Part shown: piece after piece, positions 2,124 to 61,263 of the stretch
How positions within the stretch are numbered: position 1 is the first letter of the stretch
How the letters are laid out: every line of letters begins with the position of its first letter
Source: Candidatus Hydrogenedentota bacterium
Lineage (GTDB): Bacteria; Hydrogenedentota; Hydrogenedentia; Hydrogenedentales; JAEUWI01
Direction of reading: 5' to 3'
Assembly: GCA_016182605.1 (NCBI GenBank)
Contig: JACPGE010000046.1
Location: forward strand, 7,769 to 71,768
DNA length: 64,000 nucleotides
The notes under the pieces: generated by a model
What the model saw: the letters and a program-made list of their open reading frames with translations, nothing else
Databases searched by the model: none
Told to the model about the DNA's origin: nothing
Translations under genes and position numbers: made by a program

Positions 2124-2211
2124 AATAGACAAGCATTGACAAAGAAACCCGGAGAATGTACTGTATACGTATTCAGTGTTTCAAGGCTTTTCTTCGCCAA
2201 GGAATCGATAT

Positions 2212-3354: not shown

Positions 3355-3416
3355 ACACGATTGATCGGGTATAAATTTTGCGTAATCCTGTGATTCCTTG
3401 CGAACAGACTGAGACG

Positions 3417-8009: not shown

Positions 8010-8494
8010 GGGGACAGCCCGAATGGCACTAACTTAAGGACCTTAACCGAAGCATTTCCGCGAAAAATCATGTGAAGGACATCTACAATCGCACAAGTAG
8101 GCCTTCGCTCGCCGGGCGTAGGCATCTCCACACAAGCCAACCGCACCACACACTGACAAATCACGCCCCAATCCATAAAAAGGGCTCCCTTCGAAAATGG
8201 AACCGGCTAAAGTCTCACAGCGACAACTTCGAGCGCCAAGGGGACTGTCCTCTTCCCGAGTTTCACGAGGGAAAGGGACTGTCCCCCGCACCGCCAGCGC
8301 GCATAATCCTGCAACAGACGGATTCTCGTCGGCCTCGTCTTTGAAGATGGAACCGGCAAAAGTTGAACTTGCCCCAGAATCTACATCCCCCTTGGTCCCC
8401 CTTTGAAGATGGGGTAGGGGAGATCTTAGAACCTCACGCAAGTTCATACACCAACATCTTGTACTCTTAAGTCAGCGCCATTCGGAACAGCCCC
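8010..8494. repeat. MITE-like repeat element, complete copy with terminal inverted repeats
   Basis: Left end ggggacagcccgaatggcactaacttaag (8010-8038) and right end cttaagtcagcgccattcggaacagcccc (8466-8494) are inverted (22/29 matches). The internal core aagtaggccttcgctcgcc.ggcgtaggcat.tccacac recurs at 13.6, 13.85, 14.18 and 24.17 kb. Confidence 0.65.
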
Positions 8495-8545
8495 CTGAGA
8501 ATGGCCTAAAATAAATGGCGCCATGGGCGCCCTGGAGATCGGATT

Positions 8546-13531: not shown

Positions 13532-14037
13532 GGGGACAACTCCGAATGGCGCCAACTTAAGAACCTGCCTCGAAGCATGGCCACCCAAAAACACGGGAAT
13601 GACATCGACAAACCGGACAAAGTAGGCCTTCGCTCGCCGAGCGTAGGCATTTCCACACGAGCCAGCCGCACTATACACCAGCAATCACGCTCCACACGTT
13701 GAAACAGTCCCCCTTTCGAAAATGGATCCGGCAAAAATCTCGCAACGACAACTTCGAGCGCCAAGGAGACTGTCCCGAATGGCACTAACTTAAGGACCTG
13801 CCTCGAAGCATGGCCACGAAAAAACACGGGAATGACATCAGCAAACCGGACAAAGTAGGCCTTCGCTCGCCGAGCGTAGGCATTTCCACACGAGCCAGCC
13901 GCACCACACTCTAACAATGACGTTCCAAACGTTGAAATGGTCCCCCTTCGAAGGGGGTAGCGGGGATCTAAGAACCTCACGCAAGACCAGACACCGGCAT
14001 GATTTACCGCTAAGTTAGTACCATTCGGGGACACCCC
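13532..14037. repeat. MITE-like repeat element, tandem-dimer copy with terminal inverted repeats
   Basis: Left TIR ggggacaactccgaatggcgccaacttaag (13532-13561), a second internal left-end copy at ~13768-13796, and right TIR ctaagttagtaccattcggggacacccc (14010-14037). Shares its core with 8010-8494 and 24083-24251. Confidence 0.65.
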
Positions 14038-14173: not shown

Positions 14174-14210
14174 AAGTAGGCCTTCGCTCGATGAGCGTAG
14201 GCATTCGCAG
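14174..14210. repeat. Isolated fragment of the MITE-like core
   Basis: aagtaggccttcgctcgatgagcgtaggcattcgcag matches the conserved core of the repeat family but has no ends. Confidence 0.4.
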
Positions 14211-44701: not shown

Positions 44702-47700
44702 CAGCAGCAATTGCACACCTCGCTTTGCCGTTCCTCGAAGGCGCCGCCACCAAAGTTCACGAGCACCCGGTAGTAGCGATCCGCCCATACGAAACAATCG
44801 GCCACCACCGCCGCCGGCGCGGTGGACGCGGTGCACACCGCGCGCATGGCGATGAGCATGGCCGTGTCGCAATTGGATCGGTTGCTGTTGCAGGTCTGGT
44901 AACACCGATCGTGATTGTCGCACGGACCCATCAATCCGTTGGGCCCGGGCACCACGCCGAATTGCGTGTCGTTGCCGCCGGCGGGGTTGTCCTTGTCCGC
45001 AACCACGGTACCCTGCGCCCACGAAGGCGCGCTGCACCCATCGAACTGGAAGGTCCACGCGGGATTCGGCACGCGATTGGGGCAATCCTCCAATTCCGCG
45101 ATGGGATTCTTCGCCTGCACTTCGTTGTTGTTGAAGGCGCCGGTGCCCTGGGTGCAGCACTGCGTGGCCAGCGAGAAGACCTCCGGCGTGGATCGAACGA
45201 TACCCGTGTCGCAGCAGCCTTGCGTCGCCAGGGTGTAAACGGCGCGGCCGCAACAGCCCTGGGTGCCCGTGTTGTACGGCACGCCGTTGCAACAGGCCTG
45301 ATTCTGCTTCAAGGTGCTGGTGCATTCTCCATCGGCCATCTCTTCGCAGGGGCCGCACTGCTCCACATCGCTGGTCACGGAATAGGGCGGACAATTGCTG
45401 CCCCAGCCCGCCACATCGATCCCGGCGCCCGGATCGCTCCGGATCGTGCCCCCATCCTCCGAAACCTGCCCACTCGCCACAATCTCGAAACTGCCCTTCT
45501 CATGATTGAAATTCAGGAAGAACGCCGCGGCGCCCGCGGGGAGCGCGCTCATGTTCGGGTATTCGATCCGGATGGGCGGATCGAAGCGCGCCCCCGTGGG
45601 TCTCAGGGTCCAGGCGAAGGGCGGATTCACGCCATCGGGCAGGGGCATAGGCACATCGTCGAAATGAACCTGGTTCAATGCGATCAAGGCGCCGTCCGTG
45701 GCCGGCGTGCCATCCGCAAGCGTCATCGAACCGGGCTCGACAAACATGCGCAACCCCTCGATCTCTTCCACCTCCAGCACGGTCACCTCGGTGGTGCTGT
45801 AGAACCGCACATTGTTCGGATTCAGCGGCGGCAACAGCACGGGCGTCGGCAAGCCATTCGCCGCGTTGGGCACCACAAGCACCTCATAACCCAGCTCCGG
45901 GAACATGCCCGGGGAAATGGGATTGCCCCCCAGGCTGGTCGCGGTAGCACCGTCGATGTGCAGATGGCCATGACCCGCGGGGAGATCGCTAAACTCAAAG
46001 GTGCCGTCCGCCGCCGTAAACGTTTGCTGTTCCGTGCCGGAGCCCACGAGCAGCACCACATGGGCATTTCCAATGGGCGCGTTCCCATTGTCGAGCACGA
46101 CACCGCTAAACGTGGTGGGCTGATTCCCCCGGCGCACCGATCCGAACACGGTAAACACGACGGGGGCCGTATCGTTCTGCGGGTAATCCACCTCGACCAC
46201 ATTGTTGCCTTCCTCCGGGCCCAGGATCAGATTCACCGCGGCGTGACCGGTCGCATCGCTGGGAATGCTCACTTCCTCTTCGCCGCCGATATTGCCGCCG
46301 CCCTCGATCACCCGGAACGTGACCTCCACCCCCGCCAGGCCGTTGCCCCCATCGCTTACCCAGGCCACCAGCGGCTCCGGCGCCGGGGCGCCCGCCTCTC
46401 CACGCTGCAGGTTGCCCCCGCCCAGATTCAGTTGTTTGGGCGCTGCCGGCGTGGACGTCGCACAGAACATCACCGTGCCCGCCACATCCCGGCTCGTCGC
46501 CTCCACCCGGTTGTTTCCGCAGCCGGCATCTGTGCCCAGCCGCCAGAACGCGCGTGCGCGGCCATTCAAGTCCGTGGCCGTCCGGATCGAGATGGCGCCT
46601 TCGCCGCCCTGCGCCACGCTGAGCCGCCCATCGCTCCGCACCACCGAGAAGGTCACCAGCTTGCCCGAGAGCGGCGTGCCATCCCCACGGGTGACCTCCA
46701 CCTCGATCGGCGTGGTCAGTTCCGAAAGGATCGTGCCCTGCTGCCCATCGCCCCCGGTTGCCGTCATGCGCACCGCATTCGCCGGAATCGCCGTCCGGCT
46801 AACCGTAACTTCGTGCGTGGCGCTGTTGCCGACGGCGTCCGTCACCGTCGCGCTGAGCACGTTCACCCCTTCATTCAGCGCGACCATCGTCCGCTCAAAC
46901 GTGCCATTGGTCCCCACGCCGCTGTTCACCGCGGCCGCGGCGCCGTTCACCGTGACCTCCAGCCCCATGAAGCCGCTGAGCGAGTCGGAAATCCGGCCCG
47001 CCACGGCAACCGTCGCGTTCGTGAGCTGCGCGCCATCCGCGGGAAAATCGATGAACACAAAGGGATCCTGGCCATCCTGAACGACCTGCACCGGCGACGG
47101 TGAACTCGATTCGCCGCGCGCCTGCGCCGTCACAAACAACTTGTTCAGCCGGTTCGGATTGAGCGTGACCTCCACCGAAAAAGCGCCCGTCTCGTCCGCC
47201 ACGGCCGTGACTTCGCTCGCGCCTCCGGAAATCACCAGGGTTGCGCCCCGTTCCGCGGTCCCGGAAAGGGTCACCGAATTCGACGAGGTGGACGTGACCG
47301 AACCCACCACGGTGGGCGCGGCGGGCGGCCCCGTCAGCATTTCCCCCTCGCCCTCCCCTTCGCCCTCGCCTTCGCCCTCCCCTTCGCCAGTGCTCGCCGT
47401 AACCGTTATGGTGCGCGTGGCCGTATTCGAGCTGCTCGCGGAACGCACCGTGAGGGAAGCCGTATACACGCCCGCTTCGGCATAGATATGCGAAACCGAC
47501 AGGCCACTTCCGGGGACACTGTCGCCAAAGACCCACTCACGACTGCTAATGGTCTGGCCCGCGGCTGCGGTGGAGGTGTCGGTGAAGAGCACAGTCAGCG
47601 GCGCCGGTCCCGTCATGGGCGTGGCCGTGAAACTCGCGGTGACACCCGAGGGCGCCGGCGGCATGCACCCCGGGTGCACGGCAACTACGATGAGCGTCAA

Positions 47701-48033: not shown

Positions 48034-48077
48034 GCTCAGCCCTGCCGCAGATCCACCATCGCCGTCGCCACGCCCGA
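48034..48077. repeat. Left copy of ~44-bp imperfect direct repeat (att-like), relic of the beta-helix gene 3' end
   Basis: gctcagccctgccgcagatccaccatcgccgtcgccacgcccga matches 55258-55301, with a 19-bp perfect core gcagatccaccatcgccgt at 48047-48065. Minus-strand translation ends GVATAMVDLRQG, versus GVATAMVDLRKG for the real gene. Confidence 0.65.
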
Positions 48078-48342
48078 CCGGCGCACAAGCCTCCCTCTGG
48101 CCCAACTTCCTTTGAGGATATGGGCCCGCACCCGATCTCTTACAGCAACTCGTGCGCGAGAATGCCCGTGCCACGCCTCCTCAAACACTTCGGCCCCCGA
48201 TATCCAACCCCGACAATCGACTAATCGCACTTGATGTCGCTGCATTTGGTTAGAAGAGCACCTCTTTCAAGAATTACGCCTCGCACCGCTCGTGCGTCCA
48301 AAACTCGTCTTGATGACACAGTCCATCGCAGCTTGTCAGCAC

Positions 48343-51300
48343 TCAACATCCTCCTGCCATCATACTGCGCATCGCATCTACCGCGTCACGGCCATCAGGC
48401 ACAAAAAGTAGCAACTCCTCATCCTCGAATTTTCTCAAAAGTTCCTCTAACTTAAGAACCTCGGAGAGCTTCCGTACTTCTGCCGTTTGCCACATCGATA
48501 ACGCCATCGCATGACGAAGTGACATATATTGTCTGCTACTCGCCGAACCCACAGTAAACAAAGCCCCGTTCGCTCTATCAATCAACACTCTTCTTCCCGC
48601 CGAGGGCCGAAAGTCGATATCATCTTCGACTTCTGATCGGCAAAGATGCATGCAACCTTCCCCAGGATCCACCGAGAAAATCAAATCCTCCAGCAAAACA
48701 ATATAAAAAGCCCTTATAAGTACGACATTTGCCAACAATGATTCCAATCGGCTCTCCCGCAAACTGAGTCGCACCTTATCTCCTTGGGCCTCCGCACAGA
48801 ATACGAAATGCACCGGACGATAACACGGCTCTTCCCCTTTCAATCCACTTCTCATCAATTCCACAGCTTCTGCGCATCGCCCGTCGCCTTCCTCTCGCAG
48901 TGTCCGCCAAAACTCCCTCCGCAATTCCCGCGACCGCTCCAAGTCATCGTATTCCTCGCCTCCGACTCCAAAATAATTATCCGTAGCGAAGGCAACTGCT
49001 TTCAGACATTGAAGAATTGAAACTCCGGACTTTACCTCTGCGAAGTCCTTCAGGAGTCCTTTCATCTGCTCCAAGAAAACTTCCGTCCCATGGGCCTCCT
49101 TCACAAGCAGCAACGGCCAGTTCTCTCGCCACCAAACTTCAAGCTGTTCCGTCAAAATCGTAAGCGAAAACTTAGACAACTCACCGCACTCACTCGCGCT
49201 TAACGCCATCTCTACCAAGAAGCACTGCAATGCATTCTCCGCAAGAAACACCATATTTTGCACCACGTCGTTGTCGGTGCCCTTCTTGTCCACTGCCAGC
49301 AGCAAGAGAATGATCTTGGAATACAATCCACCAATAGAATTCCCCGCGTGCGCTCCGTTGAAACAAACGAGCCGAGCGAATAGGAAACCTACAACCAACT
49401 CATTCAACAGGCAGCGGTCGAAATATGGATCAACAGTATTTGAGCCCCTTCCAGAAAGAACGCTACTTACAATACCGCCGGCACTCCCGGTAGCCGCCAA
49501 TGCCCCCAGAAATGCGTTTGAAGTCGACACAGGATGCAAAAATTCATGTAATATTATCCCAATATGCATCGGATGAGATGCTTGATTAGGATTTACATTG
49601 AATACCGCATAAGTGCAATCAAAACCCAATTTTGCACGGCTCGGTACGGTGATCGTAAGTGTTTCGGCCGAAGGCCGTTGATCCACTCTAAGTATGCCCC
49701 CGGAAAAATATACGGGGCCAAGCAGTGCCATCACTCCTTCGGCAAGCCCACTCCAAGCGTTTACTGCCAATGTGGTTCGCCCCCAGCGCTCCCCAACCGA
49801 GTCTATGTGATTGCTCCTGCGGGCACCCGAAGAAGAATTCCTGTTAAGCGCCGCGCTGAATGGCTCGGTGAATGCGCGCAATACATCTTCTGCCTCTCGT
49901 GCAATTACATTACCACACAATGGGGCCATCTGCACGGCCATATGCCAAGCCAAATAAGCATCAACCAACTCCAAGGCGATTGTAGAATCGCATGGATCCA
50001 TCAACTGTTCTTGAAAATGATGCGCCACACTCAAGTATTTGTCACGTAGGTGTCGGCTCGTTCGAAGCTTCTTGACCGCCATCAACGCATCGTAACGCGC
50101 GTGCTGCTCCTTCTCGGAATCATTCTTGGATACGGCACCTCGACCAAATCCACGGCGAACCAGGCTCTCCAGATAGTCTCTCGTACTGAATGGATAAGGG
50201 ATTCGTTTGTCTCGCCGCAACGGCAGCACATTCCGCTCTTGCGCAGTCGTTCTCAACACAAGTGTTGCGGCGCGCAAGGGAGTTCCTCGTTGAGCCGAGG
50301 CCACTCCACCTTCAGGAACGTATGTTCCCCTGCTCATCGTATCCATAAGTCGGTAATACTTTAACAGCACCTCAAGCGTCTGGACACCGCCGCCAATATT
50401 GACCATGCCACCGCTGCCCGTCGGCTCCAGCGGTAAAAGTTCCGACAATGGTATTTGAAAGTCATAGTACCCAAATACCGTGCGTTCCATACGGAAGGCT
50501 ATCTGCTCGCAAGATAACTTCTCCTTTTCCGCAAAATCCAATACACAGCGGCTCAGATCCTTTTCATGCCCCAGTTTCGTCGAGACTATCAATTCACCAT
50601 CAATCTCACCGGAGATGCCCCACCCGACTCCTGTGAAGCTCGTGCTCTTTGCTGCTTCCGCGAATGGCCATATCACTCCCGGTATTGTATTCGCCTGCGT
50701 AAATATGTGGTTAGCAGCAAAATGCCTCGCCGGATCAAACTCGATCTCCCCCCCGATGTTGGCGCACTTCGCCAACTCCTTGTAGCGCGAAACCAAAGCC
50801 GATTGCTGAATTCGATACACTTCAATCATGTCACCATGAGCTTGTTCTATCAAATCCTCCCAGGCATCAAAAACGTCGGCAACCGTAATACCCGCTATAG
50901 CATCCACGCACAAACGAACTTCCCCAAAGGCATTACTGGATACCAGTAGTGTGAAATCACTCCAATCCGACGACGCAAGCAACAACGCTTTCGGATGCCG
51001 AATGGTCTCATCGCACACTCCCAGCGCTGATTGAAGCCGATGCTCTATCACATGTAGTAGCGGAAGGTACCCGGCAGCCGCGTTCAGTGTCCTTACAAGT
51101 CCGGAAATCTGAACCCGGCAAATTGAGAATAAAGGCATCGGAGGTGGTGTCGCTGCTTGGGGGCGCCCATTTTCAATCTCAACCTGATTAAGCGCGATAA
51201 ATTCACCGGAATTCCATTGCTGCAACACTCGAAATGTGCCCCTGAGCTCAATGGCGTCTGGTACTACAGCCGCTCCTTGAATGCAATGAACTGCCTTTAA

Positions 51301-51660
51301 TCCATTTACAGTACAAATATTTTCTCCTATACCATAGGAGTGTGTTCTAAATATAGCGGCTAGCTGCATCTCGCCAAGCAATGAAACAAACAGAGGCAGG
51401 GTTGGAACAATCTCAACGCACCCATCTCTTTCATATGCGTCAAGCCCGACGGCCTTTCGCTCTTGCCTAATCGACTCAAGATTCACTTGCATTGAGCAGG
51501 CGTCGTCCACCATCATCTGACGCTTCCGATGAATGAGTATGCGACGTTTTATTCGCGCCACAACCTCCGCCTCATCATCAGGCGAGACTGCAATCAGCAG
51601 AACATTGATCAACTCACCTTCCAAATAGACGCCCAATGGGTTGATTTTCAATTTGCGCAT
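48343..51660 (-). CDS. 1105-aa protein of unknown function with HEFLH (HExxH) motif; last gene of the KAP-NTPase operon
   Basis: Uninterrupted 3.3-kb ORF in ~50% GC DNA, where long shadow ORFs are unlikely. HEFLH is encoded at 49534-49548. No other recognisable motif. Confidence 0.75.
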   Translation of the reverse strand: MRKLKINPLGVYLEGELINVLLIAVSPDDEAEVVARIKRRILIHRKRQMMVDDACSMQVNLESIRQERKAVGLDAYERDGCVEIVPTLPLFVSLLGEMQLAAIFRTHSYGIGENICTVNGLKAVHCIQGAAVVPDAIELRGTFRVLQQWNSGEFIALNQVEIENGRPQAATPPPMPLFSICRVQISGLVRTLNAAAGYLPLLHVIEHRLQSALGVCDETIRHPKALLLASSDWSDFTLLVSSNAFGEVRLCVDAIAGITVADVFDAWEDLIEQAHGDMIEVYRIQQSALVSRYKELAKCANIGGEIEFDPARHFAANHIFTQANTIPGVIWPFAEAAKSTSFTGVGWGISGEIDGELIVSTKLGHEKDLSRCVLDFAEKEKLSCEQIAFRMERTVFGYYDFQIPLSELLPLEPTGSGGMVNIGGGVQTLEVLLKYYRLMDTMSRGTYVPEGGVASAQRGTPLRAATLVLRTTAQERNVLPLRRDKRIPYPFSTRDYLESLVRRGFGRGAVSKNDSEKEQHARYDALMAVKKLRTSRHLRDKYLSVAHHFQEQLMDPCDSTIALELVDAYLAWHMAVQMAPLCGNVIAREAEDVLRAFTEPFSAALNRNSSSGARRSNHIDSVGERWGRTTLAVNAWSGLAEGVMALLGPVYFSGGILRVDQRPSAETLTITVPSRAKLGFDCTYAVFNVNPNQASHPMHIGIILHEFLHPVSTSNAFLGALAATGSAGGIVSSVLSGRGSNTVDPYFDRCLLNELVVGFLFARLVCFNGAHAGNSIGGLYSKIILLLLAVDKKGTDNDVVQNMVFLAENALQCFLVEMALSASECGELSKFSLTILTEQLEVWWRENWPLLLVKEAHGTEVFLEQMKGLLKDFAEVKSGVSILQCLKAVAFATDNYFGVGGEEYDDLERSRELRREFWRTLREEGDGRCAEAVELMRSGLKGEEPCYRPVHFVFCAEAQGDKVRLSLRESRLESLLANVVLIRAFYIVLLEDLIFSVDPGEGCMHLCRSEVEDDIDFRPSAGRRVLIDRANGALFTVGSASSRQYMSLRHAMALSMWQTAEVRKLSEVLKLEELLRKFEDEELLLFVPDGRDAVDAMRSMMAGGC

Positions 51661-51710
51661 GTGTTCTCCTGGCAGGCTCTTGTTCGACTTTCATCGGGCA
51701 AGATGGGTGT

Positions 51711-52319
51711 TCAGCGCTTACGAACTTCTAATTGCTGTAATGCAATGGAAAAACCCTCCGTCAATCTTCTAATCACCCATCCAGTGCCCTCCTGGTTGAA
51801 TGCAGCAGCCTGGCGGAATTGCACTCCCCTGCAGTCGGTACCTTGAACTGATTCTTCTGATAGGATCTCGCCTCCAACTGCTACATGGACGGTTACTCCT
51901 TCTCGCTTGCTCACTTTGCGCTGCACGATCGGCTTGGATACTGCATTACGAGGCCCTGAGCTGGTGATCGAGCCTGTGCATTCCGCCGGACTCGGATACG
52001 CTTGGAGCGCCAACTTGCCCTCAGTAAAGGCAATTGCGCTGTCATCGCTCAGGTCCGGGAAATCCTGATGTAAATCGATCGACATCCAAGGCGAATTGGA
52101 TGCCAAATCATTGTGGTAGGCTCGCTTTCTCACATCCAGGAATAGTCGTCGAACCATGCCTCGATGCAAGCACATTCGAGAATCCACGTAAGCACCGCGA
52201 AAAAAAACGGCCAGATCCCTCATACCACTATCGAAATTTTCTTGATTCTGTGCACCATATGTAATTTCTAGAAGCTCTTCGATGACCTCCTGCAATCGCT
52301 CAAAGTTCATGCTGTCCAC
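51711..52319 (-). CDS. 202-aa hypothetical protein (operon gene 3)
   Basis: ORF in the low-GC island. The start overlaps the upstream gene by 13 nt. No recognisable motif. Confidence 0.6.
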   Translation of the reverse strand: MDSMNFERLQEVIEELLEITYGAQNQENFDSGMRDLAVFFRGAYVDSRMCLHRGMVRRLFLDVRKRAYHNDLASNSPWMSIDLHQDFPDLSDDSAIAFTEGKLALQAYPSPAECTGSITSSGPRNAVSKPIVQRKVSKREGVTVHVAVGGEILSEESVQGTDCRGVQFRQAAAFNQEGTGWVIRRLTEGFSIALQQLEVRKR

Positions 52320-53260
52320 GTTATTGGCCTTCTGGCAAGATGCTTTGCCAACTGCTCTGGATCAAGTCCTTCGAAATAGAGATTCGCGGTACCTTTGGAA
52401 GTTTCAATCCAACTTTGGTGCATACATACAATTGCTCTTATCCCAAATCTGCTGACGAATGACATGGCATCAGACACCAATCCTTCATAGCGGCGGGCAT
52501 CAATATCAAGTGAAGAATTCTCGCTCCGGTTATCAGTTTTTCCCGTGGACTGTATGTAATACTTTGTGATGCAATGCGTCTCCTTTAAGAATCTCTCGAA
52601 TCGACTCAACTCCAGGCGGGGAGTCGAGGAGTCCTTTGCCGTGCAATCATAGATATAGTGAAGTTGAGCGATTGGAGCTCGCCCCAATCTATCATAAGCA
52701 TTGCGATCCGGAGGAAGGATCCGGAACTCCGATTGACAGAAGTCTCCGACGGCCGCGGCCATAAAAGACCAATTCGTATCAGGTGGAACCCAAAGGTTAG
52801 CAATCGATGTCAACCAGCTCGATCTTAGAGCATCGGCTCGTTTCCCTTTCAGACTCACAATGTAACGACGCATTTCTTCACAAGAGGAGTTCAATTTCTC
52901 GCTTCTTACTGCGCTTCTTCCCGCAAATTGCTTGTAAATCTCGCCAACAATATAGTTTACGTCCACTTCTTCCTCATCAAGAGTTGTCGCGTAATGGCTC
53001 GTGTTGTTATGCGTGGTGGCGAGCGCTTTGATCGTCGGTGTAATTCGTTCCATCCGGTCGCTGCTGCGAGCAGAAAGAATTGAAGAACGCAAGAGTTTGT
53101 CAAAACCCTCCTTTAGGCTTCCCAGATCAAATTGCACGCCACCAGTTGAACCATTCGGTAACTTAAAAGTTTCAATATCCAAATGGCGCTCCTTGTAGAG
53201 TACCTTCTCGACAATCTCGTGATCCAACGAACTATGCTCATTCATTGCCAGCCACCTCAA
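52307..53260 (-). CDS. 317-aa hypothetical protein (operon gene 2)
   Basis: ORF overlaps the KAP gene stop (23 nt, or 8 nt if the ATG at 53245 is used). No recognisable motif. Confidence 0.6.
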   Translation of the reverse strand: MRWLAMNEHSSLDHEIVEKVLYKERHLDIETFKLPNGSTGGVQFDLGSLKEGFDKLLRSSILSARSSDRMERITPTIKALATTHNNTSHYATTLDEEEVDVNYIVGEIYKQFAGRSAVRSEKLNSSCEEMRRYIVSLKGKRADALRSSWLTSIANLWVPPDTNWSFMAAAVGDFCQSEFRILPPDRNAYDRLGRAPIAQLHYIYDCTAKDSSTPRLELSRFERFLKETHCITKYYIQSTGKTDNRSENSSLDIDARRYEGLVSDAMSFVSRFGIRAIVCMHQSWIETSKGTANLYFEGLDPEQLAKHLARRPITWTA

Positions 53261-54494
53261 AAGCGCAGGACGGACTCAACCTAATAAAGCAGAGAAGATG
53301 TGGATAATTTCGCAATAGTCTCTCAAAGAATTCCCGGGCGGTAGGAGACCATCCGGGATCCATCATTAACTCTTCAAACTCCTCTGGGGCGCTACGCCGC
53401 ATATTGGCACATTCCTCCACGGTGGCTGGTATTTTCATTGACTTTGAAAGTAACTTTCCATAGAGTCCGGGTTCCGTCATGACGGAGCGCCAAATCTCAC
53501 CGAAACAGTGCTTTAGTATGAAGTCTTTCAAGGCAGCCATGATTGGGCTCCGTGCGGTAATTCTCCTCTCGAATAGCCATGCCATAAGGAGCCGCTTGAG
53601 GGCTCGCGGATTTAGCGGCGCACCAATCAGAATCAAGCGCCGTTCGTCCCGTGAGACCTCGCTACCTTCAGGAAACCCCTCCAGTAGCCGGTCTATAAAC
53701 TCGGCAGCGACTCCAACGTCCAAGTCTGGCACAGAAAGAGAAACATCTATCAACTTGTCCAAGTAGCTCTTTGACAACTCATCCGCATTGCGAAACCCAT
53801 GGCCGTTGTATCTTGAATATACTGCTTCACGAATCGTTCGGGAGTCGAGAGCCAAGACAAATCGGCACTTGGTAGTTCCAAGCAGCAATTTGATCGTCTC
53901 AAGCATATTGAGTGCGACCTCGGGGGCCACCCTATCCAAATCGTCGAATAACAAGACCTTGGGTTTTCCAGTGGCCAAAGTGCGCTGCAACTTCTTAAGT
54001 CCTTGCTCCGCTTCAGAAAAATGCGCGCTCGCCAACTGCTCATTGCTCGATTGAATGCGATCAAAATCCTCGACTTTTTCATCTAATTTAATTGATACGG
54101 GTGCTCCGGGAACTTTAATTTCAATCGCACGCAACAAAATAGACACCGCCGAAAGTGCATTCAACGAGGCAAGAGTAAATTCTCGGCGAATCGCCGCCGA
54201 TGGCGAATCACAAGACCTAACAATATCACGCCGAATGGCGAAGTCCATATTCTCATGCTTTTCATATCGCCACAAATCCAACCAGCGAACGTCATGATCG
54301 CGCGGCAACGCGTTCTGGAGCAGCCTTAAATAAGATGTCTTTCCGCTTCCCCAGTCACCAAAAATTGCAACTACTGTTCCGTCTGCCATGTGAGGCAACA
54401 GCTTGGCAAGTTCACTGGCATGGTTCGAAAAACCGAGGAAATCCTCGGACTCACTGCAAATAGGTGCCTGTGATATTTCCCCTGATTCATTCAC
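53238..54494 (-). CDS. KAP-family P-loop NTPase (operon gene 1)
   Basis: EDFLGFSNHASELAKLL N-terminus, Walker A GDWGSGKTS (54333-54359), Walker B LLFDDLDR (DDLDR at 53931-53945), and SYLDKLIDVSLSVP. GTG start. Confidence 0.8.
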   Translation of the reverse strand: MNESGEISQAPICSESEDFLGFSNHASELAKLLPHMADGTVVAIFGDWGSGKTSYLRLLQNALPRDHDVRWLDLWRYEKHENMDFAIRRDIVRSCDSPSAAIRREFTLASLNALSAVSILLRAIEIKVPGAPVSIKLDEKVEDFDRIQSSNEQLASAHFSEAEQGLKKLQRTLATGKPKVLLFDDLDRVAPEVALNMLETIKLLLGTTKCRFVLALDSRTIREAVYSRYNGHGFRNADELSKSYLDKLIDVSLSVPDLDVGVAAEFIDRLLEGFPEGSEVSRDERRLILIGAPLNPRALKRLLMAWLFERRITARSPIMAALKDFILKHCFGEIWRSVMTEPGLYGKLLSKSMKIPATVEECANMRRSAPEEFEELMMDPGWSPTAREFFERLLRNYPHLLCFIRLSPSCAFEVAGNE

Positions 54495-54562
54495 TCTTAA
54501 TTGGCTTTCCAGTTACCTTAGTTATATGGTTCGCTTATTTTTTTTAATGCTTGCGGCTTTTG

Positions 54563-54591
54563 AGTATACGAATATTGACTCCGTTGTTCAA
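54563..54591 (-). promoter_or_regulatory. Sigma70-like promoter candidate for the KAP operon
   Basis: The minus strand reads TTGAAC-17 nt-TATACT (-35 at 54586-54591, -10 at 54563-54568), about 70 nt upstream of the GTG start, in an AT-rich stretch. Applicability of the E. coli consensus to this organism is unknown. Confidence 0.3.
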
Positions 54592-54735
54592 TAGGCATCA
54601 TAGAGGGGTCGCGGAATCCTTGATTCCTGACTCGATTAGACTCGACCCCCACGTAATATACAGGCCCAACGAACCAAGCAAACACTACATATAGTTGCAG
54701 GGCGGCTACTTTACACAACCAATACTATCTTTAAG

Positions 54736-55249
54736 TTGTGCTTCGGATTAGGCTACGGAGCTCGTACCACTCTCGCCGCCACGAGTCCTCGCCCCGCAAC
54801 TTGTTGTGTATTGCCTACGGCGGCACAACACCCAGTTGTTCTCGCTCTTCCTTACCTCCCAGACTGGCCGCCGTGGTGGCTTGGAAAGGCGGCGCAGGCT
54901 ACTTTTGAGATGGTGCGGCTCCGGGGGCAGCAGGCAATGATGGACGCCATGCTCCAGGAGTATCCAGAGTTCCGCGCCGTACTCGATCAGGCCGATCCCA
55001 TCCATGCCTTCGAAAAAATTCCCCCCCAAGGCTCTCGCCCTCATCAACAACCAGGACGACCCGCTCATCCCCCGTGCATGCGCTGAATCCCTCTACCAGA
55101 AACTCCTCCCCCTCTACGAAAAACACCCCGCCAACCTCCTCCTCAAGCTGTGCCCAACCAACAAGCCCACGCACGACGACCAGACCGAAGCCTTCGACGC
55201 CGGATGCCAATGGCTCGAAGACCACCTCCTGAACAGGCAGCCCGGCTAA
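54736..55249 (+). pseudogene. 5'-truncated and frameshifted remnant of an alpha/beta hydrolase (dienelactone-hydrolase/peptidase S9-like C-terminus)
   Basis: Two overlapping frames (54736-55086 and 55004-55249) join sensibly across an A6/C7 homopolymer run (55013-55027). The result reads ...DPIHAFEK / PPKALALINNQDDPLIP...THDD..., which looks like the C-terminal Asp/His part of a hydrolase with no N-terminal nucleophile region. Confidence 0.4.
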
Positions 55250-55257
55250 GCCCCCCG

Positions 55258-55301
55258 CTCACCCCTTGCGCAGATCCACCATCGCCGTGGCGACGCCCGC
55301 G
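55258..55301. repeat. Right copy of ~44-bp imperfect direct repeat (att-like), inside the 3' end of the beta-helix gene
   Basis: gctcaccccttgcgcagatccaccatcgccgtggcgacgcccgc. The 19-bp perfect core at 55271-55289 is identical to 48047-48065. Confidence 0.65.
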
Positions 55302-56626
55302 ATCATGTTCGCCTCAAGCACATTTTCACCGGCCTCTGCGCCGATGCGGATGCCGATGCGCTGCGCCGGGCCGCGGCGTTCTTCTATCGTGTTCTGCCGG
55401 ATCGTGTTGCCCTCCGTCACCCCCTGAAGATCGATCGCGATGCCGTCGTCACCGCCGGAATCGAGGATGCGATTGCCTTCGATCACGTTGCCCGTGGCAG
55501 TGAAGCCCTCGCCGCGTTCGGGCCGGAAGAGCACACCAACCTTGCCGCTGCCCTCGATGGTGTTGTTGCGCACGATGTTATAGTGGTCGCGGTGGCCGAT
55601 GCTGACACCCTCGCCGCTGTTGCCCACGATCATGTTGTCTTCCGCCATGCCTTCGCGCACGCCCCAGCAGAAGAAGATGCCGATGGTGTTGTTCTCGATG
55701 CGGTTGTTCCGCATGACGGGCCGCTGCGATCCGGAGCCGGGGTGCAGGCCGAGATCGGCGTTGCCGTGGCTGTGGCAGTGCTCGACCAGAACATCGTGGC
55801 AAATCTGCCAACTGATGCCATCGCCGTTGTAATTGCGCGCCTCCACCCGCCGGAAACTCAGATCGGAGCAGTCCTGAAACCACATGCCGCCGCCATAGTT
55901 TCCGTTCAGGTTTGCATTGTTTTCGCGGTTGCCGTCGATCGCCAGATTCTCAATGGCAATGTCCGACTGAAACTCCGCTGTGATCACGGGGAAAAGCGCC
56001 GCCACTTCCGGGGTCTGATCCATCCAGAAGTTCACGCGCGGCGCCTGGTCAAGCTTGAAGCGGTTGCCGCTGCGCGCGATCAGGGTGCGACGCAACACGT
56101 CCATGCCGCCCGTGTGCGGGTTCTTCGTGCGCAGGCACACCCCGTCGCCCACATTGAAGCCCCGCGCATCCGCCAGCGTGATCTCCTGGTCGAACCAGTC
56201 CGTGTCCGCCGCGAGGGTCGTCGAAAATGACGGCGCCTTGAAGAGCACCGTCTCCGCGCCACTGCCCACGATGCGCAGCCCCGACTTTACAAAGATGCTG
56301 TTGCGGCAGGTGTACGTGCCCGGCAAAATCTTCACCGTGCCCCCGCCCAGACGCGTGCAATAGTCCGCGGCAGCCTGAATGGCCCGCTCCGTCGTGCCTT
56401 CGAAATCGCCGCCTTTGCCCACGGTCACGGTGACGCGCTCCTCCCACTGCGGCTCGCGCCGTCCATCGCCCGAGGTGCTCTTCACCGGCGCGCCGAGTTG
56501 GGGCTCTTCCGCCCGGGCGCAAGGCAACGTCAAAGCGGAAGCCATGGCGGCGAGCTGCAGAAAGCCGCGCCGGTTCAGTGTGTTGGGTGCGCTCATGCTT
56601 TTCATCCTCGGGTTGGGCCGCGTCAC
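55259..56626 (-). CDS. Tat-exported right-handed parallel beta-helix repeat protein (pectate-lyase/NosD-like fold)
   Basis: NRRGFLQLAAMASALTL twin-arginine signal. Repeated N.I..N...GI and G...N.I.GN beta-helix repeat pattern. Confidence 0.7.
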   Translation of the reverse strand: MTRPNPRMKSMSAPNTLNRRGFLQLAAMASALTLPCARAEEPQLGAPVKSTSGDGRREPQWEERVTVTVGKGGDFEGTTERAIQAAADYCTRLGGGTVKILPGTYTCRNSIFVKSGLRIVGSGAETVLFKAPSFSTTLAADTDWFDQEITLADARGFNVGDGVCLRTKNPHTGGMDVLRRTLIARSGNRFKLDQAPRVNFWMDQTPEVAALFPVITAEFQSDIAIENLAIDGNRENNANLNGNYGGGMWFQDCSDLSFRRVEARNYNGDGISWQICHDVLVEHCHSHGNADLGLHPGSGSQRPVMRNNRIENNTIGIFFCWGVREGMAEDNMIVGNSGEGVSIGHRDHYNIVRNNTIEGSGKVGVLFRPERGEGFTATGNVIEGNRILDSGGDDGIAIDLQGVTEGNTIRQNTIEERRGPAQRIGIRIGAEAGENVLEANMIAGVATAMVDLRKG

Positions 56627-56747: not shown

Positions 56748-58643
56748 ATGGCGGAAATGGTACCCGCGAAACTCCCGGCGCGGGCGAGCCGGGGGGAAGA
56801 ACGCCTCTTTTCCATTCTTCAGCGCCTGCCCGCCGGGTACATCGTTTACTACGAGCCCTACGTGAAATCCAAGTACCCCGACTTCATCGTCATCGCGCCG
56901 GATTTGGGCGTGATGGTCATCGAAGTGAAGGGCTGGTACGCGGGCAATCTGTGTGGGGCCACGCCGGAATCGATCACGGTGAAATACATGGGGCGCACCC
57001 GCGCCTATCCGCATCCCCTGCGCCAGGTGCGGAACTACATGTGGAACTTGTCGGCGGAGTGCGAGCGGGTGCCCGCCTTCACGGAACTCCTGCGCAAGGA
57101 GGGACAACACCTCGGGCGCCCGATCTTTCCCTTCGGTCATTTCGTCGTCCTCGCAAACATGACCGGAAAGCAGCTTGCAGAGCACCCTTTGGGCGATTTC
57201 CGGCCGCTCTTCGACCGCGCCTCCACCATGCTGCGCGAGGATCTGGAGGCCTGGGAGAAGGCCCCGCCAAATGCGCTGCCTGCCATGCTGGCGCAGTTCT
57301 TCCAGGTGCAGTGGCCCATGCCCCCCCTCACGCCGCGCCAGGTGGACATCCTTCGCGCGATCATCCACCCCGAGATCCGGCTGGGCGGCCTGCCGCGCCG
57401 GCTTCCAATCGAAAACGATACGGACGCCTGGATCCCCTACAAGAGCCTGGTCAACGTGCTCGATCTGCGGCAGGAACGCACCGCGCTCTCGATCGGCGAA
57501 GGACACCGCGTGCTCTTCGGGGTCGCGGGCTCGGGTAAGACCGTGGTGCTCATTGCGCGGGCGCGCTACCTCCACGATCGCGATCCCCAGGCGCGCGTGC
57601 TGCTCCTCTGCTTCAACGTGGCGCTCGGAGCCTACCTGCGCCAAGCCTTGCGCGAATGCGCCCGGGTGAAGGTGCACCACTTCGACGGCTGGGCCAAGGC
57701 AAACGGCGTCACGCGCCAGTTCACCCCCGAGGGCACGGAGTCCGACGACCGCATGGGAGCGCGCCTGCTCGACGTGCTGGCCGCAGGCAGGGGCGAAGCG
57801 GGCGCCTATGATGCCGTGCTGATCGACGAGGCGCAGGACTTTCCCCCCGAGTGGTTTTCCTGTGTGCGCGCGGCATTGAAGGATCCCGAACAGGGCGACC
57901 TGATCATCGTGGGCGATGGACAGCAGGGCATCCGCCGCAACAAGGCGGTGACGTGGTCGGAACTCGGCATTCAGGCGCGGGGCCGCACGGTGAACCAGCG
58001 CTTCGATCTGGACAAGAACTACCGCAACAGCCGCGAGATCGTGGCGCTGGCCGCGGCCTTTGCGGCAGGCTCGCGCGATGGCGTGACGGGGGACATTCTG
58101 CGCGTGCCGCTGGACGCCTCGAAAACCGTGCGCGCCACGGGGTTCATGCCGGTGGCCGCCTCATTCCGCGATCGCGATGCGGAACGCCAAGCCATTGTGC
58201 ATACGGTGGCTTGGCTGCTGGGACAGCCTGCGCCCATCAACGCGCTCCTGCCCAATGACCTCGCCCCGGAAGAGATTGGCCTCCTGTACCCCATGCTGCC
58301 GAAACAACTCCGGCCCGGTTTTGACGCGCTCCGAGAATCGCTCCGTGCATTTGCGCCCGTGCTTTGGCTCAATGAGACGCGCGCGAACCGCGAAAAATGG
58401 GGCGTGGAAGGCATCAAGATTCAGACCATCGACTCCTCGAAGGGCCTCCAATACCGCGCCGTGATTCTGATGTGGGCCGATCTGCTGCCGCGCAATTTCC
58501 AGGACTCGGACGAAGCAAGCGATCGCGCCCTGCTCTACGTCGGCCTGACACGCCCCGAAGACTGCCTCGTGGTCACCGGCCTGACCAAGAGCCGTTACCT
58601 GGAAGAATTGCAGGCGACCTGCCTGGCCGAAACGCACTTGTAA
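56748..58643 (+). CDS. NERD nuclease domain fused to UvrD/Rep-like SF1 helicase
   Basis: N-terminal GEERLFSILQRLP...YPDFIVIAPDLGVMVIEVKG (NERD, PD-ExK). Walker A GVAGSGKT (57519-57542), LIDEAQDF, and C-terminal TIDSSKGLQYRAVIL (UvrD_C-like). Confidence 0.8.
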   Translation: MAEMVPAKLPARASRGEERLFSILQRLPAGYIVYYEPYVKSKYPDFIVIAPDLGVMVIEVKGWYAGNLCGATPESITVKYMGRTRAYPHPLRQVRNYMWNLSAECERVPAFTELLRKEGQHLGRPIFPFGHFVVLANMTGKQLAEHPLGDFRPLFDRASTMLREDLEAWEKAPPNALPAMLAQFFQVQWPMPPLTPRQVDILRAIIHPEIRLGGLPRRLPIENDTDAWIPYKSLVNVLDLRQERTALSIGEGHRVLFGVAGSGKTVVLIARARYLHDRDPQARVLLLCFNVALGAYLRQALRECARVKVHHFDGWAKANGVTRQFTPEGTESDDRMGARLLDVLAAGRGEAGAYDAVLIDEAQDFPPEWFSCVRAALKDPEQGDLIIVGDGQQGIRRNKAVTWSELGIQARGRTVNQRFDLDKNYRNSREIVALAAAFAAGSRDGVTGDILRVPLDASKTVRATGFMPVAASFRDRDAERQAIVHTVAWLLGQPAPINALLPNDLAPEEIGLLYPMLPKQLRPGFDALRESLRAFAPVLWLNETRANREKWGVEGIKIQTIDSSKGLQYRAVILMWADLLPRNFQDSDEASDRALLYVGLTRPEDCLVVTGLTKSRYLEELQATCLAETHL

Positions 58644-59630: not shown

Positions 59631-59717
59631 GGGCGAGTGGTGGAATTGGCATACACGACGGACTTAAAATCCGTTGGGAGTGATCCCTTGCGGGTTCGAG
59701 TCCCGCCTCGCCTACCA
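59631..59717 (+). tRNA. tRNA-Leu (anticodon UAA), CCA encoded
   Basis: Hand-folded cloverleaf. Acceptor GGGCGAG/CUCGCCU (G1:U72), D arm GUG-GAAUUGGCAUA-CAC, anticodon stem ACGGA/UCCGU with loop CUUAAAA, long variable arm (GGGA..UCCC), T arm GCGGG-UUCGAGU-CCCGC, then discriminator A plus CCA. Confidence 0.88.
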
Positions 59718-59940
59718 TATTAAACACTGACGATTCGCGAAAAATGGCGGTTTGCTCCTTCCCTTGTCAAGGAGCCGCAAGCACACAATAAAGCACGGCG
59801 GAAAATGAACACAGGCCCCCCCCGCGGGGTAATCTTTGCCCAGTTTGCGCTAAACGGGTACGGCATGTCCCGTAGTCTTCCCAAAGATGGACGGGACATG
59901 ATAATATTGGTGTGCGACCTATTGAAACTCGGAGAAAAAA

Positions 59941-60291
59941 ATGAGCGATCCCGTAAATCCTGAGATCGTCTTTGATCTCATAAAAAGTCCCGCGTATAGG
60001 ACCGCCCATATAGATGGAGCCTTTGGGGGAATCACCACTAAAGGCAAAATCTCTATCGCATTGTTCTCCGAGCGGCAACCAATACCCACCTCCATTACGC
60101 ACGCGCTAGATGGAAACAAAATCGGGAAGGAATTGGGACGCGAGACTCGGCAAGCCATAATCCGCGAATTGGAAGTAAACTGCATCATGGACCCAGATAC
60201 GGCGCGAGCAATCGCTGAGTGGCTCAATGCAAAAGCTGAAGAATCCGAAAAAGCTAAGGAATCGATCGGGAATGACGTGGACAATGAGTGA
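59941..60291 (+). CDS. 116-aa hypothetical protein (cassette gene 1)
   Basis: ORF in ~50% GC DNA downstream of the tRNA. Preceded by a 10-bp perfect inverted repeat and ggagaaaaaaATG. No motif recognised. Confidence 0.45.
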   Translation: MSDPVNPEIVFDLIKSPAYRTAHIDGAFGGITTKGKISIALFSERQPIPTSITHALDGNKIGKELGRETRQAIIRELEVNCIMDPDTARAIAEWLNAKAEESEKAKESIGNDVDNE

Positions 60292-60793
60292 GTGTACGGT
60301 TGGTCAAGCTACTGGCAATATTTTCCCGCACATCTTGACGGTGTCGACAGAGATCCCTCAAACATTTGCATATCCCGAAGGCAGCTTCGCCTACAACAGA
60401 ACCAATCACTTGCCAGACGCGATTATGGGAAAACTCAAACGTCTCCCAAACATTGCGAGTGAATTGATTGATCGGTGGATAGAAGATACGGCCTTTCACT
60501 CTTCCCCAACCATCATTTTGCAGTCGCGGCATTTCTTGCAAGCCAAGGAAATGTATGCGCCCGGCTTAATTGAAAGACTCTTCCAAATATTGGATGTCCA
60601 CCCCTATCATGCAATCTTGGGGTTGGGTGAATTAGTCAGCCCGTTACCGTTTGGCAAAGAGTTGGCGGGCGATTTGGCTGGAATTGTAAGCGCGTGGAAG
60701 GAATGGGGACGTGACGGGCAACTCAGGCTTGGATCTTCCGGAATGGTTTCCAAATTTGCAGTCGATGCCGTGGAAAGAGACGAGCCCTATTGA
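60284..60793 (+). CDS. 169-aa hypothetical protein (cassette gene 2)
   Basis: The ATG overlaps the stop of gene 1 (ATGAGTGA). No motif recognised. Confidence 0.45.
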   Translation: MSECTVGQATGNIFPHILTVSTEIPQTFAYPEGSFAYNRTNHLPDAIMGKLKRLPNIASELIDRWIEDTAFHSSPTIILQSRHFLQAKEMYAPGLIERLFQILDVHPYHAILGLGELVSPLPFGKELAGDLAGIVSAWKEWGRDGQLRLGSSGMVSKFAVDAVERDEPY

Positions 60794-61151
60794 TGCCCGG
60801 TACAACTGTATAGCATATGCATATGGGATAACGGACAGGTTTTTCTGGCCAAACAACCCAAGTAACGCATGGCCAGATAAGATTCCAAAGGAAGAAACCG
60901 TGGAGGTCTTCAAAACCCTCTACAGATCGATCGGCTACGAAGATTGCAGTAGCGGCGATCCGGAAAATGGTTATGACAAAGTTGCCATTTTCGCTACTGT
61001 AGATGGAGTACCAACCCATGCATCCGTCTATCGTAATGGCAAATGGCGGAGCAAATTGGGCTCATTGTGGGATATATCACACGAGCTCAATGGGCTTGAC
61101 GGCAAGCGATACGGCACTCCTGTCGCTTTCCTTCGTCGCTTGGCACAGTAA
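60711..61151 (+). CDS. ~130-146-aa hypothetical protein with possible Cys/His hydrolase motif (cassette gene 3)
   Basis: Overlaps gene 2 (alternative ATG at 60765). RYNCIAYAYG ... PTHASVY spacing is reminiscent of papain-like/NlpC-type Cys-His pairs, but this is a weak call. Confidence 0.4.
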   Translation: MTGNSGLDLPEWFPNLQSMPWKETSPIDARYNCIAYAYGITDRFFWPNNPSNAWPDKIPKEETVEVFKTLYRSIGYEDCSSGDPENGYDKVAIFATVDGVPTHASVYRNGKWRSKLGSLWDISHELNGLDGKRYGTPVAFLRRLAQ

Positions 61152-61263
61152 CGAATTTTCAATCCCATTTCGTTGATTCTGAAAACTTGCCACAAACCAG
61201 CCCCCCACGCTGCCTCAATGCGGGAGTCGGCTAGCCCGGAGACGATGCGATATTCTATCCGGC

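Follow-up and report, generated by a model that had tools for sequence, protein, structure and literature searches.

A duplicated beta-helix gene end on both sides of a four-gene KAP NTPase cassette in Hydrogenedentota: a possible relic of an integrative element

Does a short direct repeat on both sides of a low-GC segment mark the place where a mobile element once entered the 3' end of a protein-coding gene? The question is raised by a locus of an uncultured groundwater bacterium of the Hydrogenedentota, in which a 7.2-kb insert adjoins a conserved gene for a secreted enzyme. We analysed a stretch of 64,000 nt that includes this locus (below, the window, to which all coordinates refer). The original prediction saw in the repeat the footprint of site-specific integration by an element that has left no recognisable integrase. 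To our knowledge, the Hydrogenedentota are an uncultured phylum without described mobile elements.

The duplicated gene end

The imperfect direct repeat exists, in slightly different dimensions from those predicted: instead of about 36 matches in 44 positions, its two copies are of 43 nt with an identity of 38/43 (88%), and the right copy starts 1 nt earlier, at 55257. The perfect core was likewise taken to be 19 nt long and in fact comprises 20 nt (48046-48065 = 55269-55288), with mismatches on both sides of it. The predicted content of the copies was correct: the right one is the real 3' end of the beta-helix gene with its stop codon, and the left one is an orphan with no gene body attached (Table 1). 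What is duplicated coincides exactly with the end of the gene (38 coding nt, the stop codon and 2 nt), as is typical of att sites that rebuild their target gene. Beyond the 43 nt no similarity was found even with sensitive blastn and tblastn searches; it ends abruptly at 48076/48077. The segment boundaries carry no inverted repeats longer than 10 nt.

Four of the five differences between the copies are synonymous third-position changes and the remaining one is a K/Q replacement (P = 0.045 for at least four of five synonymous under random placement of the differences). Because of this pattern, both copies appear to have evolved as functional ends of a gene. In the core, 0/5 variable third positions differ, compared with 4/6 outside it (Fisher P about 0.045). 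Neither statistic, on synonymous bias or on core clustering, is stronger than about P = 0.045.

With up to two mismatches allowed, the core matches just the two copies in the window (0 expected from 100 shuffles), and a repeated 20-mer appeared in 0/100 random windows generated with a third-order Markov model. The search for the core elsewhere, which had been proposed as a check for a dispersed motif, revealed two copies only, in the window and in three metagenomes. At the loci of 64 orthologues, the counterpart of the 43-mer finds no match outside the gene above 27/43, no better than control 43-mers, which give up to 29/43. Each repeat copy is spanned together with its own flanks by independent Logan contigs of three runs, which confirm both junctions at a depth equal to that of the flanks; the same three runs contain both flanks and the island, and one 12.3-kb Logan contig covers both copies.

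The gene thus duplicated at its end likely starts at 56605 or 56596, judging from an LNRR motif conserved in homologues. Its family is conserved, with about 60% identity among members from Hydrogenedentota, Planctomycetota and Bryobacterales. Public data contain no close relative, the nearest one being only 71% identical, and synteny is not conserved. We know of no case in which a gene for a Tat-exported beta-helix protein serves as an integration target. A second copy of the gene end was found within 10 kb of the orthologues in 0/64 loci, which indicates that this 3' end is not a recurrent target. The window contains a single tRNA gene, for tRNA-Leu (59631-59717), with a low-GC patch of its own beside it; it carries no repeat.

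Table 1. Coordinates of the repeat copies, the arms, the cassette genes and the target gene in the window
Feature	Position	Strand	Remarks
Left repeat copy (attL-like)	48034..48076	-	Orphan duplicate of the final 12 codons of the beta-helix gene, stop codon and 2 nt; reads GVATAMVDLRQG and stop
Perfect 20-nt core in the left copy (putative crossover region)	48046..48065	.	CGCAGATCCACCATCGCCGT
Left GC-rich arm, non-coding	48077..48250	.	GC about 0.62; between left repeat and low-GC block
1105-aa protein, last cassette gene	48343..51660	-	Invariant HExxH (HEFLH, residues 705-709)
202-aa protein	51711..52319	-	Start overlaps the end of the upstream gene
317-aa protein	52307..53260	-	Same slot holds genes of 255-304 aa in KAP-type relatives
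KAP-family P-loop NTPase, 418 aa, first cassette gene	53238..54494	-	PF07693, 1.2e-27
AT-rich cassette leader	54495..54740	-	GC 0.36-0.48; sigma-70-like promoter match at 54591-54563
Host-like coding remnant in the right arm	54850..55249	+	Codon-position GC 0.63/0.37/0.79
Right repeat copy (attR-like)	55257..55299	-	Genuine 3' end and stop codon of the beta-helix gene; reads GVATAMVDLRKG and stop
Target gene, Tat-signal right-handed beta-helix (NosD-like) protein	55259..56626	-	Ends with GVATAMVDLRKG and stop

A cassette nested between GC-rich arms

The repeats had been described as bracketing a low-GC segment. A low-GC block does lie between the copies (about 48250 to about 54740), but it stops short of both, and GC-rich DNA (0.58-0.67) intervenes at 48077-48250 and at 54750-55256, forming a left arm of about 170 bp and a right arm of about 515 bp, between which the low-GC operon is nested. 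The left arm shows neither a codon-position signal nor similarity to the beta-helix gene. Within the right arm lies a remnant of a gene with host-like codon usage, convergent with the beta-helix gene (its stop codon is 9 nt away) and cut by the operon block. This remnant has lost its 5' part at the low-GC boundary and has a frameshift in the A6TTC7 run (55013-55027); no homologues of it were detectable. The view of the foreign-GC DNA as the integrated element itself needs to be amended accordingly: composition between the copies is foreign, but host-like arms abut the repeats, and one of them is a truncated pseudogene.

The low-GC core is an intact four-gene operon encoding a KAP P-loop NTPase, proteins of 317 and 202 aa and an HExxH protein of 1105 aa. 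In the translated NTPase, the Walker A (GDWGSGKTS) and Walker B (LLFDDLD) motifs are intact, and the protein matches the PADLOC profiles PDC-S20 (8e-22), PifA (9e-21) and QatA (5e-20). Its three partner proteins have no PADLOC or Pfam matches, and for the 1105-aa protein no PDB fold match was obtained either. The family of this large protein is very rare, with 28 other representatives among 1.84 billion protein clusters. In all relatives a small gene (144-206 aa) precedes the large one, in the same slot as the 202-aa gene; in some relatives the NTPase slot is taken by a TCAD9-domain or metallophosphatase protein instead. TCAD domains, known from ternary conflict systems, were not detected by Pfam in the proteins of the window; among the relatives only locus L091 has one (TCAD9, in the first slot). 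We predict that the operon is, most plausibly, an anti-phage or conflict system. The neighbourhood of the segment is rich in other defence genes: a gene for a NERD-UvrD helicase adjoins it, and an R-M module is present elsewhere in the window.

The cassette is found in five other genomic contexts, without an integrase and without bracketing repeats, and in several phyla it occupies low-GC patches acquired by lateral transfer. The integrating element is therefore something other than the cassette, which lies at best within a relic of it. Insertion without an integrase is evidently possible for cassette DNA, because the relatives reached their sites without att-like repeats.

The predicted lack of an integrase or recombinase between the repeats was borne out: no such Pfam or PADLOC domain occurs in any ORF of 48077-55256, and no recombinase was found among the other genes tested across 30-64 kb. 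Likewise, no remnant of an integrase, an excisionase or a transfer module could be recognised in the segment, and no transposase domain lies between the repeats. Insertion of a transposon or IS was rejected, given that inverted repeats at the boundaries do not exceed 10 nt, the direct repeat is of 43 nt and imperfect, unlike the short perfect target-site duplication of such elements, and a transposase domain is lacking. Neither an empty site nor an excised-circle junction was found in the contigs of the three runs, which drop rare variants; an empty site, an excised circle and a third copy of the core were likewise absent from the contigs of the three metagenomes, from IMG/VR and from the JGI metagenomes, and the two latter collections yielded no related element carrying the 43-bp sequence.

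Origin of the two gene ends

Site-specific integration into a gene 3' end produces just this geometry, in which the gene keeps an intact end and an orphan duplicate of it lies across the insert, and a core flanked by mismatches is expected if the arms of attP and attB differed and the crossover occurred in the core. The predicted footprint of such integration is supported in part, by its geometry, the mismatches around the core, the foreign composition, the absence of a recombinase between the copies and the restriction of the repeat to two copies. It is not supported by an empty site or a circle junction, by recurrent use of the gene end, by low-GC DNA abutting the repeats or by the cassette in its other genomic contexts.

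As the best explanation, which we advance tentatively, the 43-bp copies may be the relic attL and attR of a decayed, CIME-like integrative element, the interior of which was replaced by the cassette. An element with host-like GC would once have entered the beta-helix gene through site-specific recombination within its last 12 codons. The gene would now terminate with the copy of its end that the element brought (...RKG and stop), and the displaced original end (...RQG and stop) would lie 7.2 kb away. Of this element the two extremities alone would have survived, namely a non-coding stretch of about 170 bp at the left repeat and, at the right one, about 515 bp with the broken gene, while its interior, presumably together with the recombinase, would have been lost and its place taken by the later-acquired low-GC four-gene operon with its own promoter. 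The present segment would be non-autonomous (CIME-like) and would move only with a matching recombinase in trans; alternatively, it could be lost by recombination between the repeats. The repeat with its coding content, the three-part composition, the intact operon, the lack of a recombinase and the independent presence of the cassette elsewhere are observations, from which we infer the integration, the succession of events and the role in defence.

The geometry and significance of the repeat, the duplication of an exact terminus, the perfect core flanked by mismatches, the mostly synonymous differences, the nested GC-rich arms, the lack of a paralogue and the precedent of CIMEs argue for reading the copies as att scars. 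Against it stand the lack of a recombinase, an empty site, a circle, a third core copy or a module relic, the lack of homologues of the right-arm remnant, the fact that 0/64 loci use the site, the P values of only about 0.045 and the arrival of the cassette's relatives at their sites without att-like repeats.

The orphan end could instead be the relic of a second beta-helix gene, paralogous or xenologous, of the same orientation and with its 3' end at 48036, in which case the repeat would be residual homology between two genes. The arrival of the cassette would have deleted or replaced everything between codon -13 of this second gene and a point midway in the right-arm gene, leaving the last 38 nt and the stop codon. 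The bias towards synonymous differences agrees with a divergence of two genes under purifying selection, the abrupt end of similarity at 48076/48077 resembles a deletion junction, the cassette demonstrably truncated another gene on the right side, and its relatives insert without att sites. However, no second beta-helix gene or fragment was found in the window, even at E = 100, nor within 10 kb of the orthologues in 83 loci (0/83), and an origin of the orphan end from a paralogue is disfavoured because of this absence. Moreover, it would take a coincidence for the deletion to stop just within the gene terminus, the GC-rich arm at 48077-48250 would stay unexplained, and a clustering of identity in the 20-nt core (0/5 differing third positions against 4/6 outside) would be unexpected. 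We therefore consider the relic of a second gene unlikely.

Somewhat less likely still is an insertion of the Campbell type without any site-specific recombinase, in which a circular DNA with a patch of the gene end, for example from a related Hydrogenedentota genome, would have entered by a single crossover, either RecA-dependent or based on short homology, so that the patch became duplicated on both sides. The topology of the product would be the same as that observed, and both the missing recombinase and the host-like GC of the arms beside the repeats would be accounted for. The perfect core of 20 nt is near the minimal length for homologous pairing, as given by the MEPS of RecA in E. coli, yet 43 bp at 88% identity make a very poor RecA substrate. 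The incoming molecule would also have to join a 43-bp gene-end fragment to unrelated DNA, being itself attP-like, and neither a donor locus nor a circular form was found in the contigs of the three metagenomes, in IMG/VR or in the JGI metagenomes.

A chance match, a dispersed motif or a misassembly unconnected with the island is effectively refuted by the shuffles, the Markov windows, the count of just two copies, the flank-equal depth of the Logan contigs and the control 43-mers that never exceed 29/43, even though many short repeats arise in GC-rich genomes and 16- to 18-mers do recur in random Markov windows.

Likeness to known systems and meaning of the locus

We know of no related functional ICE or IME in Hydrogenedentota that shares the att specificity of the segment. 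CIMEs are documented in streptococci as decayed remnants of ICEs and IMEs, which lost the integration genes, kept attL and attR, and are flanked by these sites at the 3' end of a protein or tRNA gene (PMC5704250). At the sequence level, our segment resembles them in being enclosed by imperfect direct repeats, with one copy serving as the working 3' end of the target gene, in lacking genes for integration and transfer, and in carrying a cargo unrelated to mobility; its nested composite structure suggests successive events. It differs from CIMEs in that no relic of a recombination or conjugation module is present and the 64 orthologue loci show no use of the target.

With the tyrosine-recombinase islands at gene 3' ends (att sites of the tRNA/tmRNA type) the segment shares the duplicated 3' terminus of the target, the foreign composition, the defence-type cargo and the defence-rich neighbourhood. 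Unlike these islands, it has no integrase, and its foreign-GC DNA stops short of the att-like repeats.

Phage defence by KAP NTPases was demonstrated only recently. The cassette resembles KAP anti-phage systems (PifA, QatA of QatABCD and the PADLOC candidate PDC-S20) in having a KAP NTPase with intact Walker motifs as its first gene, in the operon with uncharacterised proteins and in the laterally acquired low-GC block. In contrast to these systems, it lacks QatB, the QueC-like QatC and the TatD-like QatD, its conserved partner is an approximately 1100-aa HExxH protein from a very rare family, and its NTPase is not fused to an effector, whereas KAP fusions have been shown to be antiphage (PMC13552941).

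One can also imagine, with little probability in our opinion, that the segment is a still-mobilisable module without an integrase but with a mimic of the gene end, the cargo of which is an undescribed four-gene immune system of a KAP NTPase and an HExxH protease. A defence cassette would then enter and leave a conserved housekeeping-type gene by means of a recombinase acting in trans or of host recombination, a kind of element not yet described in Hydrogenedentota.

If the copies are indeed att scars, this locus would offer an initial view of the way in which Hydrogenedentota integrate accessory DNA, and the attachment site would be the 3' end of a protein-coding gene rather than a tRNA gene. 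In other respects, the segment is a fairly ordinary genomic-island footprint with an unusual cargo. The cargo is of interest independently of this interpretation, as a conserved and extremely rare operon that combines a KAP P-loop NTPase with an approximately 1100-aa HExxH protein and represents a concrete candidate anti-phage system.

Significance and integrity of the repeat pair

A repeat search of the window returned a single two-copy family of 43 nt, 88% identical and spaced by 7223 bp, and local alignment of the 540-nt stretches around each copy gave exactly 43 columns and nothing beyond. The imperfect direct repeats and the duplicated 3' end of the beta-helix gene, on which the original prediction was built, are thus borne out with trivial corrections of coordinates and counts: the perfect core and the repeat are real, although they measure 20 and 43 nt rather than 19 and about 44. 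The core, CGCAGATCCACCATCGCCGT, is the longest exact match between the copies. Translated from the minus strand, the right copy gives G V A T A M V D L R K G stop and forms the uninterrupted end of the 455-codon beta-helix ORF; the left copy gives G V A T A M V D L R Q G stop, and the sequence ahead of it is unrelated, which confirms the expected gene end without a gene body. The duplicated piece is the exact gene terminus (38 nt, the stop codon and 2 nt). Mismatches lie on both sides of the core; four of the five are synonymous third-position differences (P = 0.045 for at least four of five) and the fifth is the K/Q exchange, therefore both versions seem to have been shaped as functional gene ends.

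When the window was simulated 100 times with a third-order Markov model, no repeated 20-mer arose, and the core with up to two mismatches has only two sites in the 64 kb, none being expected from shuffles; its exact form is absent from IMG/VR. For an empirical null, the corresponding 43-mer at the gene end was taken from 64 orthologue loci (about 20 kb each); its best off-gene match was 27/43, and no control 43-mer exceeded 29/43. In three runs, independent Logan contigs extend across each copy into its own flanks, and a single contig of 12,345 nt spans the pair with a depth equal to that of the flanks, which rules out an assembly artefact. The significance tests, the core count and the contigs exclude a chance match, the dispersed motif considered in the original prediction, and a misassembly as origins of the repeat. 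No tRNA, tmRNA or other Rfam RNA was found at the att-like sites.

The target gene encodes a Beta_helix/NosD-type protein of an uncultured Hydrogenedentota bacterium, the lineage of which is found in groundwater metagenomes. The LNRR twin-arginine motif is kept in the family consensus, supporting the Tat reading, and the family shows about 60% identity across Hydrogenedentota, Planctomycetota, Bryobacterales and Verrucomicrobiales. The nearest homologue (71% identity) has other neighbours on its 2.8-kb contig, and the neighbouring genes of the window are shared by none of the 83 fetched loci (80 genome and 3 contig loci). Since none of 64 orthologue loci has a duplicated end, the gene is not a common attachment site.

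Under integration, an empty site would read ...CCCGTTG-[repeat]-CGATCATGTTCGCC and an excised circle ...GGCTAAGCCCCCC-[repeat]-ACCGGCGCACAAGCC; both forms were proposed earlier as checks. The integrated form alone was seen, for the whole region and for each repeat, in Logan contigs of three runs, contigs being liable to drop rare variants. The flanks searched separately returned the same runs, i.e., no run had the flanks without the island; the lineage is present in these three runs only, all from one study, and flanks and island occur together in 3/3. A degenerate codon pattern for GVATAMVDLR had no match in IMG/VR or JGI metagenomes. At the 12-nt tandem repeat of the lipoprotein gene, unrelated metagenome contigs pile up in the hundreds (depth spike >2000), and length variants occur among contigs.

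Features of the repeat region and of the rest of the window
Feature	Position	Strand	Properties
Left copy	48034-48076		orphan gene end
Right copy	55257-55299		true gene end
Core	48046-48065; 55269-55288		20 nt, perfect
Beta-helix gene	55259-56626	-	target gene
Compartment (a)	48077 to ~48250		GC ~0.62; codon-position signal absent
Compartment (b)	~48250-54740	-	GC 0.45-0.53; compact operon
Compartment (c)	54750-55256		GC ~0.60; holds coding remnant
KAP P-loop NTPase (418 aa)	53238-54494	-	PF07693 1.2e-27; PDC-S20, PifA, QatA profiles 1e-19 to 1e-22
317-aa protein	52307-53260	-	no family match
202-aa protein	51711-52319	-	no family match
1105-aa protein	48343-51660	-	no family match
NERD-nuclease + UvrD-like helicase fusion	56748-58643	+	directly upstream of beta-helix gene; GC host-like
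12-nt tandem repeat	47341-47388		encodes (GlyGlu)n in 1064-aa PKD/Ig-domain lipoprotein gene
Methylase/Vsr patch	2176-4678		GC ~0.50; C5 cytosine DNA methylase (PF00145, 5e-43), 287-aa protein without family, Vsr mismatch endonuclease (1.3e-26)
~480-nt non-coding element	8018-8496; 13541-14039		copies 74-91% identical; partial box 14174-14205
Tandem duplication in second element copy	13542-13715; 13775-13948		233 nt, 90%
tRNA-Leu(UAA)	59631-59717		directly adjoins low-GC (~0.49) patch, to 61250, with small genes
DUF7689 protein	60711-61151		4e-34; in that patch

Compartments and cargo between the copies

The repeats had been thought to bracket a low-GC segment; a low-GC block does lie between them, but GC-rich arms intervene on both sides, and the segment comprises three compartments. 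The right arm holds the remnant of a plus-strand coding sequence. Its codon-position GC (0.63/0.37/0.79) is host-like, its end is separated by 9 nt from the beta-helix stop, and its 5' part is cut off at the low-GC boundary. Its frame changes at an A6TTC7 run near 55013-55027, covered by a contig of one run only, and this frameshift may be a sequencing or assembly error, not a true pseudogene. Pfam (E <= 10), PDB sequence, 5.8-billion-protein and IMG/VR searches, tblastn against all loci, and a single-sequence AF2 model (pLDDT 56) all failed to identify the remnant. A by-eye resemblance to an alpha/beta-hydrolase C-terminus was dropped because all homology searches were empty, and an integrase remnant is without support from the same searches. 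The low-GC operon truncates this gene, so that it presumably came later and replaced the interior of an older element. Neither TIRs nor TSDs were found at the GC boundaries. The predicted lack of an integrase or recombinase between the copies holds, and extends to transposases and transfer genes and to the genes tested within 30-64 kb.

The four-gene operon has overlapping stop and start codons and an AT-rich leader with a promoter-like site. For the 1105-aa protein, word-sharing relatives are absent among 5.8 billion proteins, and HMMER, run exhaustively against 1.84 billion representatives, yielded 28 relatives (best 34% identity). An H-E-x-x-H motif (residues 705-709) and other charged residues are invariant in the family alignments, which suggests a metallopeptidase-like active site. 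The protein was modelled confidently by AF2 (pLDDT 78, pTM 0.86); the model has no PDB fold matches below E = 1e-3, and weak chlorite-dismutase-like matches to its N-terminal alpha+beta region all lie above this value.

Five cassette relatives were placed on contigs, with gene orders KAP(421)-304-197-1081 (L084), KAP(482)-296-206-1130 (L085), KAP(410)-255-144-1095 (L088), TCAD9 protein(728)-164-1090 (L091) and metallophosphatase(446)-391-153-1048 (L092). Therefore, the cassette is conserved, with a constant core in which a small gene precedes the large HExxH gene. The middle genes share only 15-22% identity with their positional counterparts, so that homology is not demonstrable. The surroundings differ in every placed locus, and the cassette GC is below that of the flanks where checked; in all five, the cassette is without a neighbouring recombinase and without direct repeats around it, and searches of phages, plasmids and IMG/VR contigs gave no relatives of the 1105-aa protein. 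In the relatives, the NTPase slot is occupied interchangeably by a KAP NTPase, a TCAD9-domain protein or a metallophosphatase, and this swapping suggests a modular conflict system. Because KAP NTPases were recently shown experimentally to give phage defence (PMC13552941), a defence or conflict role of the cassette is most plausible.

Along its entire length, the NERD–UvrD-like fusion matches PADLOC candidate C3a187 (7.5e-71); thus, the beta-helix gene lies between two defence-type modules. The methylase/Vsr patch resembles a type II restriction-modification module that includes Vsr repair. Searches at the other low-GC patches (2.2-4.7 kb and 59.7-61.2 kb) gave no bracketing repeats, and at 59631-61250 neither an integrase nor a repeat of the tRNA-Leu(UAA) 3' end was seen. 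The ~480-nt element, with inverted-repeat ends CCGAATGGC.C.AACTTAAG ... CTTAAGT.AG..CCATTCGG, resembles a MITE or a structured RNA.

Origin of the repeat

Three models yield the observed topology: site-specific integration, a relic of a second gene, and a Campbell insertion. The integration footprint of the original prediction survives in a modified form: we tentatively regard an att scar as the best single explanation, but with the repeats most likely derived from an old, decayed element whose composition resembled that of the host, and not from the low-GC DNA itself. The latter is most likely a KAP-NTPase cassette that moves independently, has no integrase and lies nested within that element. 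In this reading, the beta-helix 3' end (attB) would have recombined with an element whose attP was a short mimic of the gene end, and crossover in the core between non-identical arms would leave a perfect core with mismatches on either side. The shaping of both versions as functional ends would be expected of an attP that must rebuild its target. Arms (a) and (c) may be the two surviving extremities of the older, host-adapted element, the interior of which was presumably taken over by the low-GC operon arriving afterwards.

A relic of a second beta-helix gene would equally account for the synonymous bias of the differences and for the abrupt end of similarity, but we consider it unlikely: the window has no other trace of a second copy, no tandem or neighbouring paralogue occurs in the 83 orthologue loci, and arm (a) and the clustering of identity are left unexplained. 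An integrase-free Campbell insertion by short homology, for all that it explains the missing recombinase, is more doubtful still, as it requires a very short, imperfect recombination substrate and an incoming circle with just a 43-bp gene-end fragment, itself attP-like.

As the scar of a decayed element, the segment matches a documented class, the cis-mobilizable elements (CIMEs), in which integration and transfer genes are lost and attL and attR are kept (PMC5704250); here, too, att-like repeats occur without such genes. As a class, the feature is a genomic-island or CIME-type footprint of a known kind; it is of interest for its phylum, for a protein-gene target that is unusual and for a very rare cargo of four genes.
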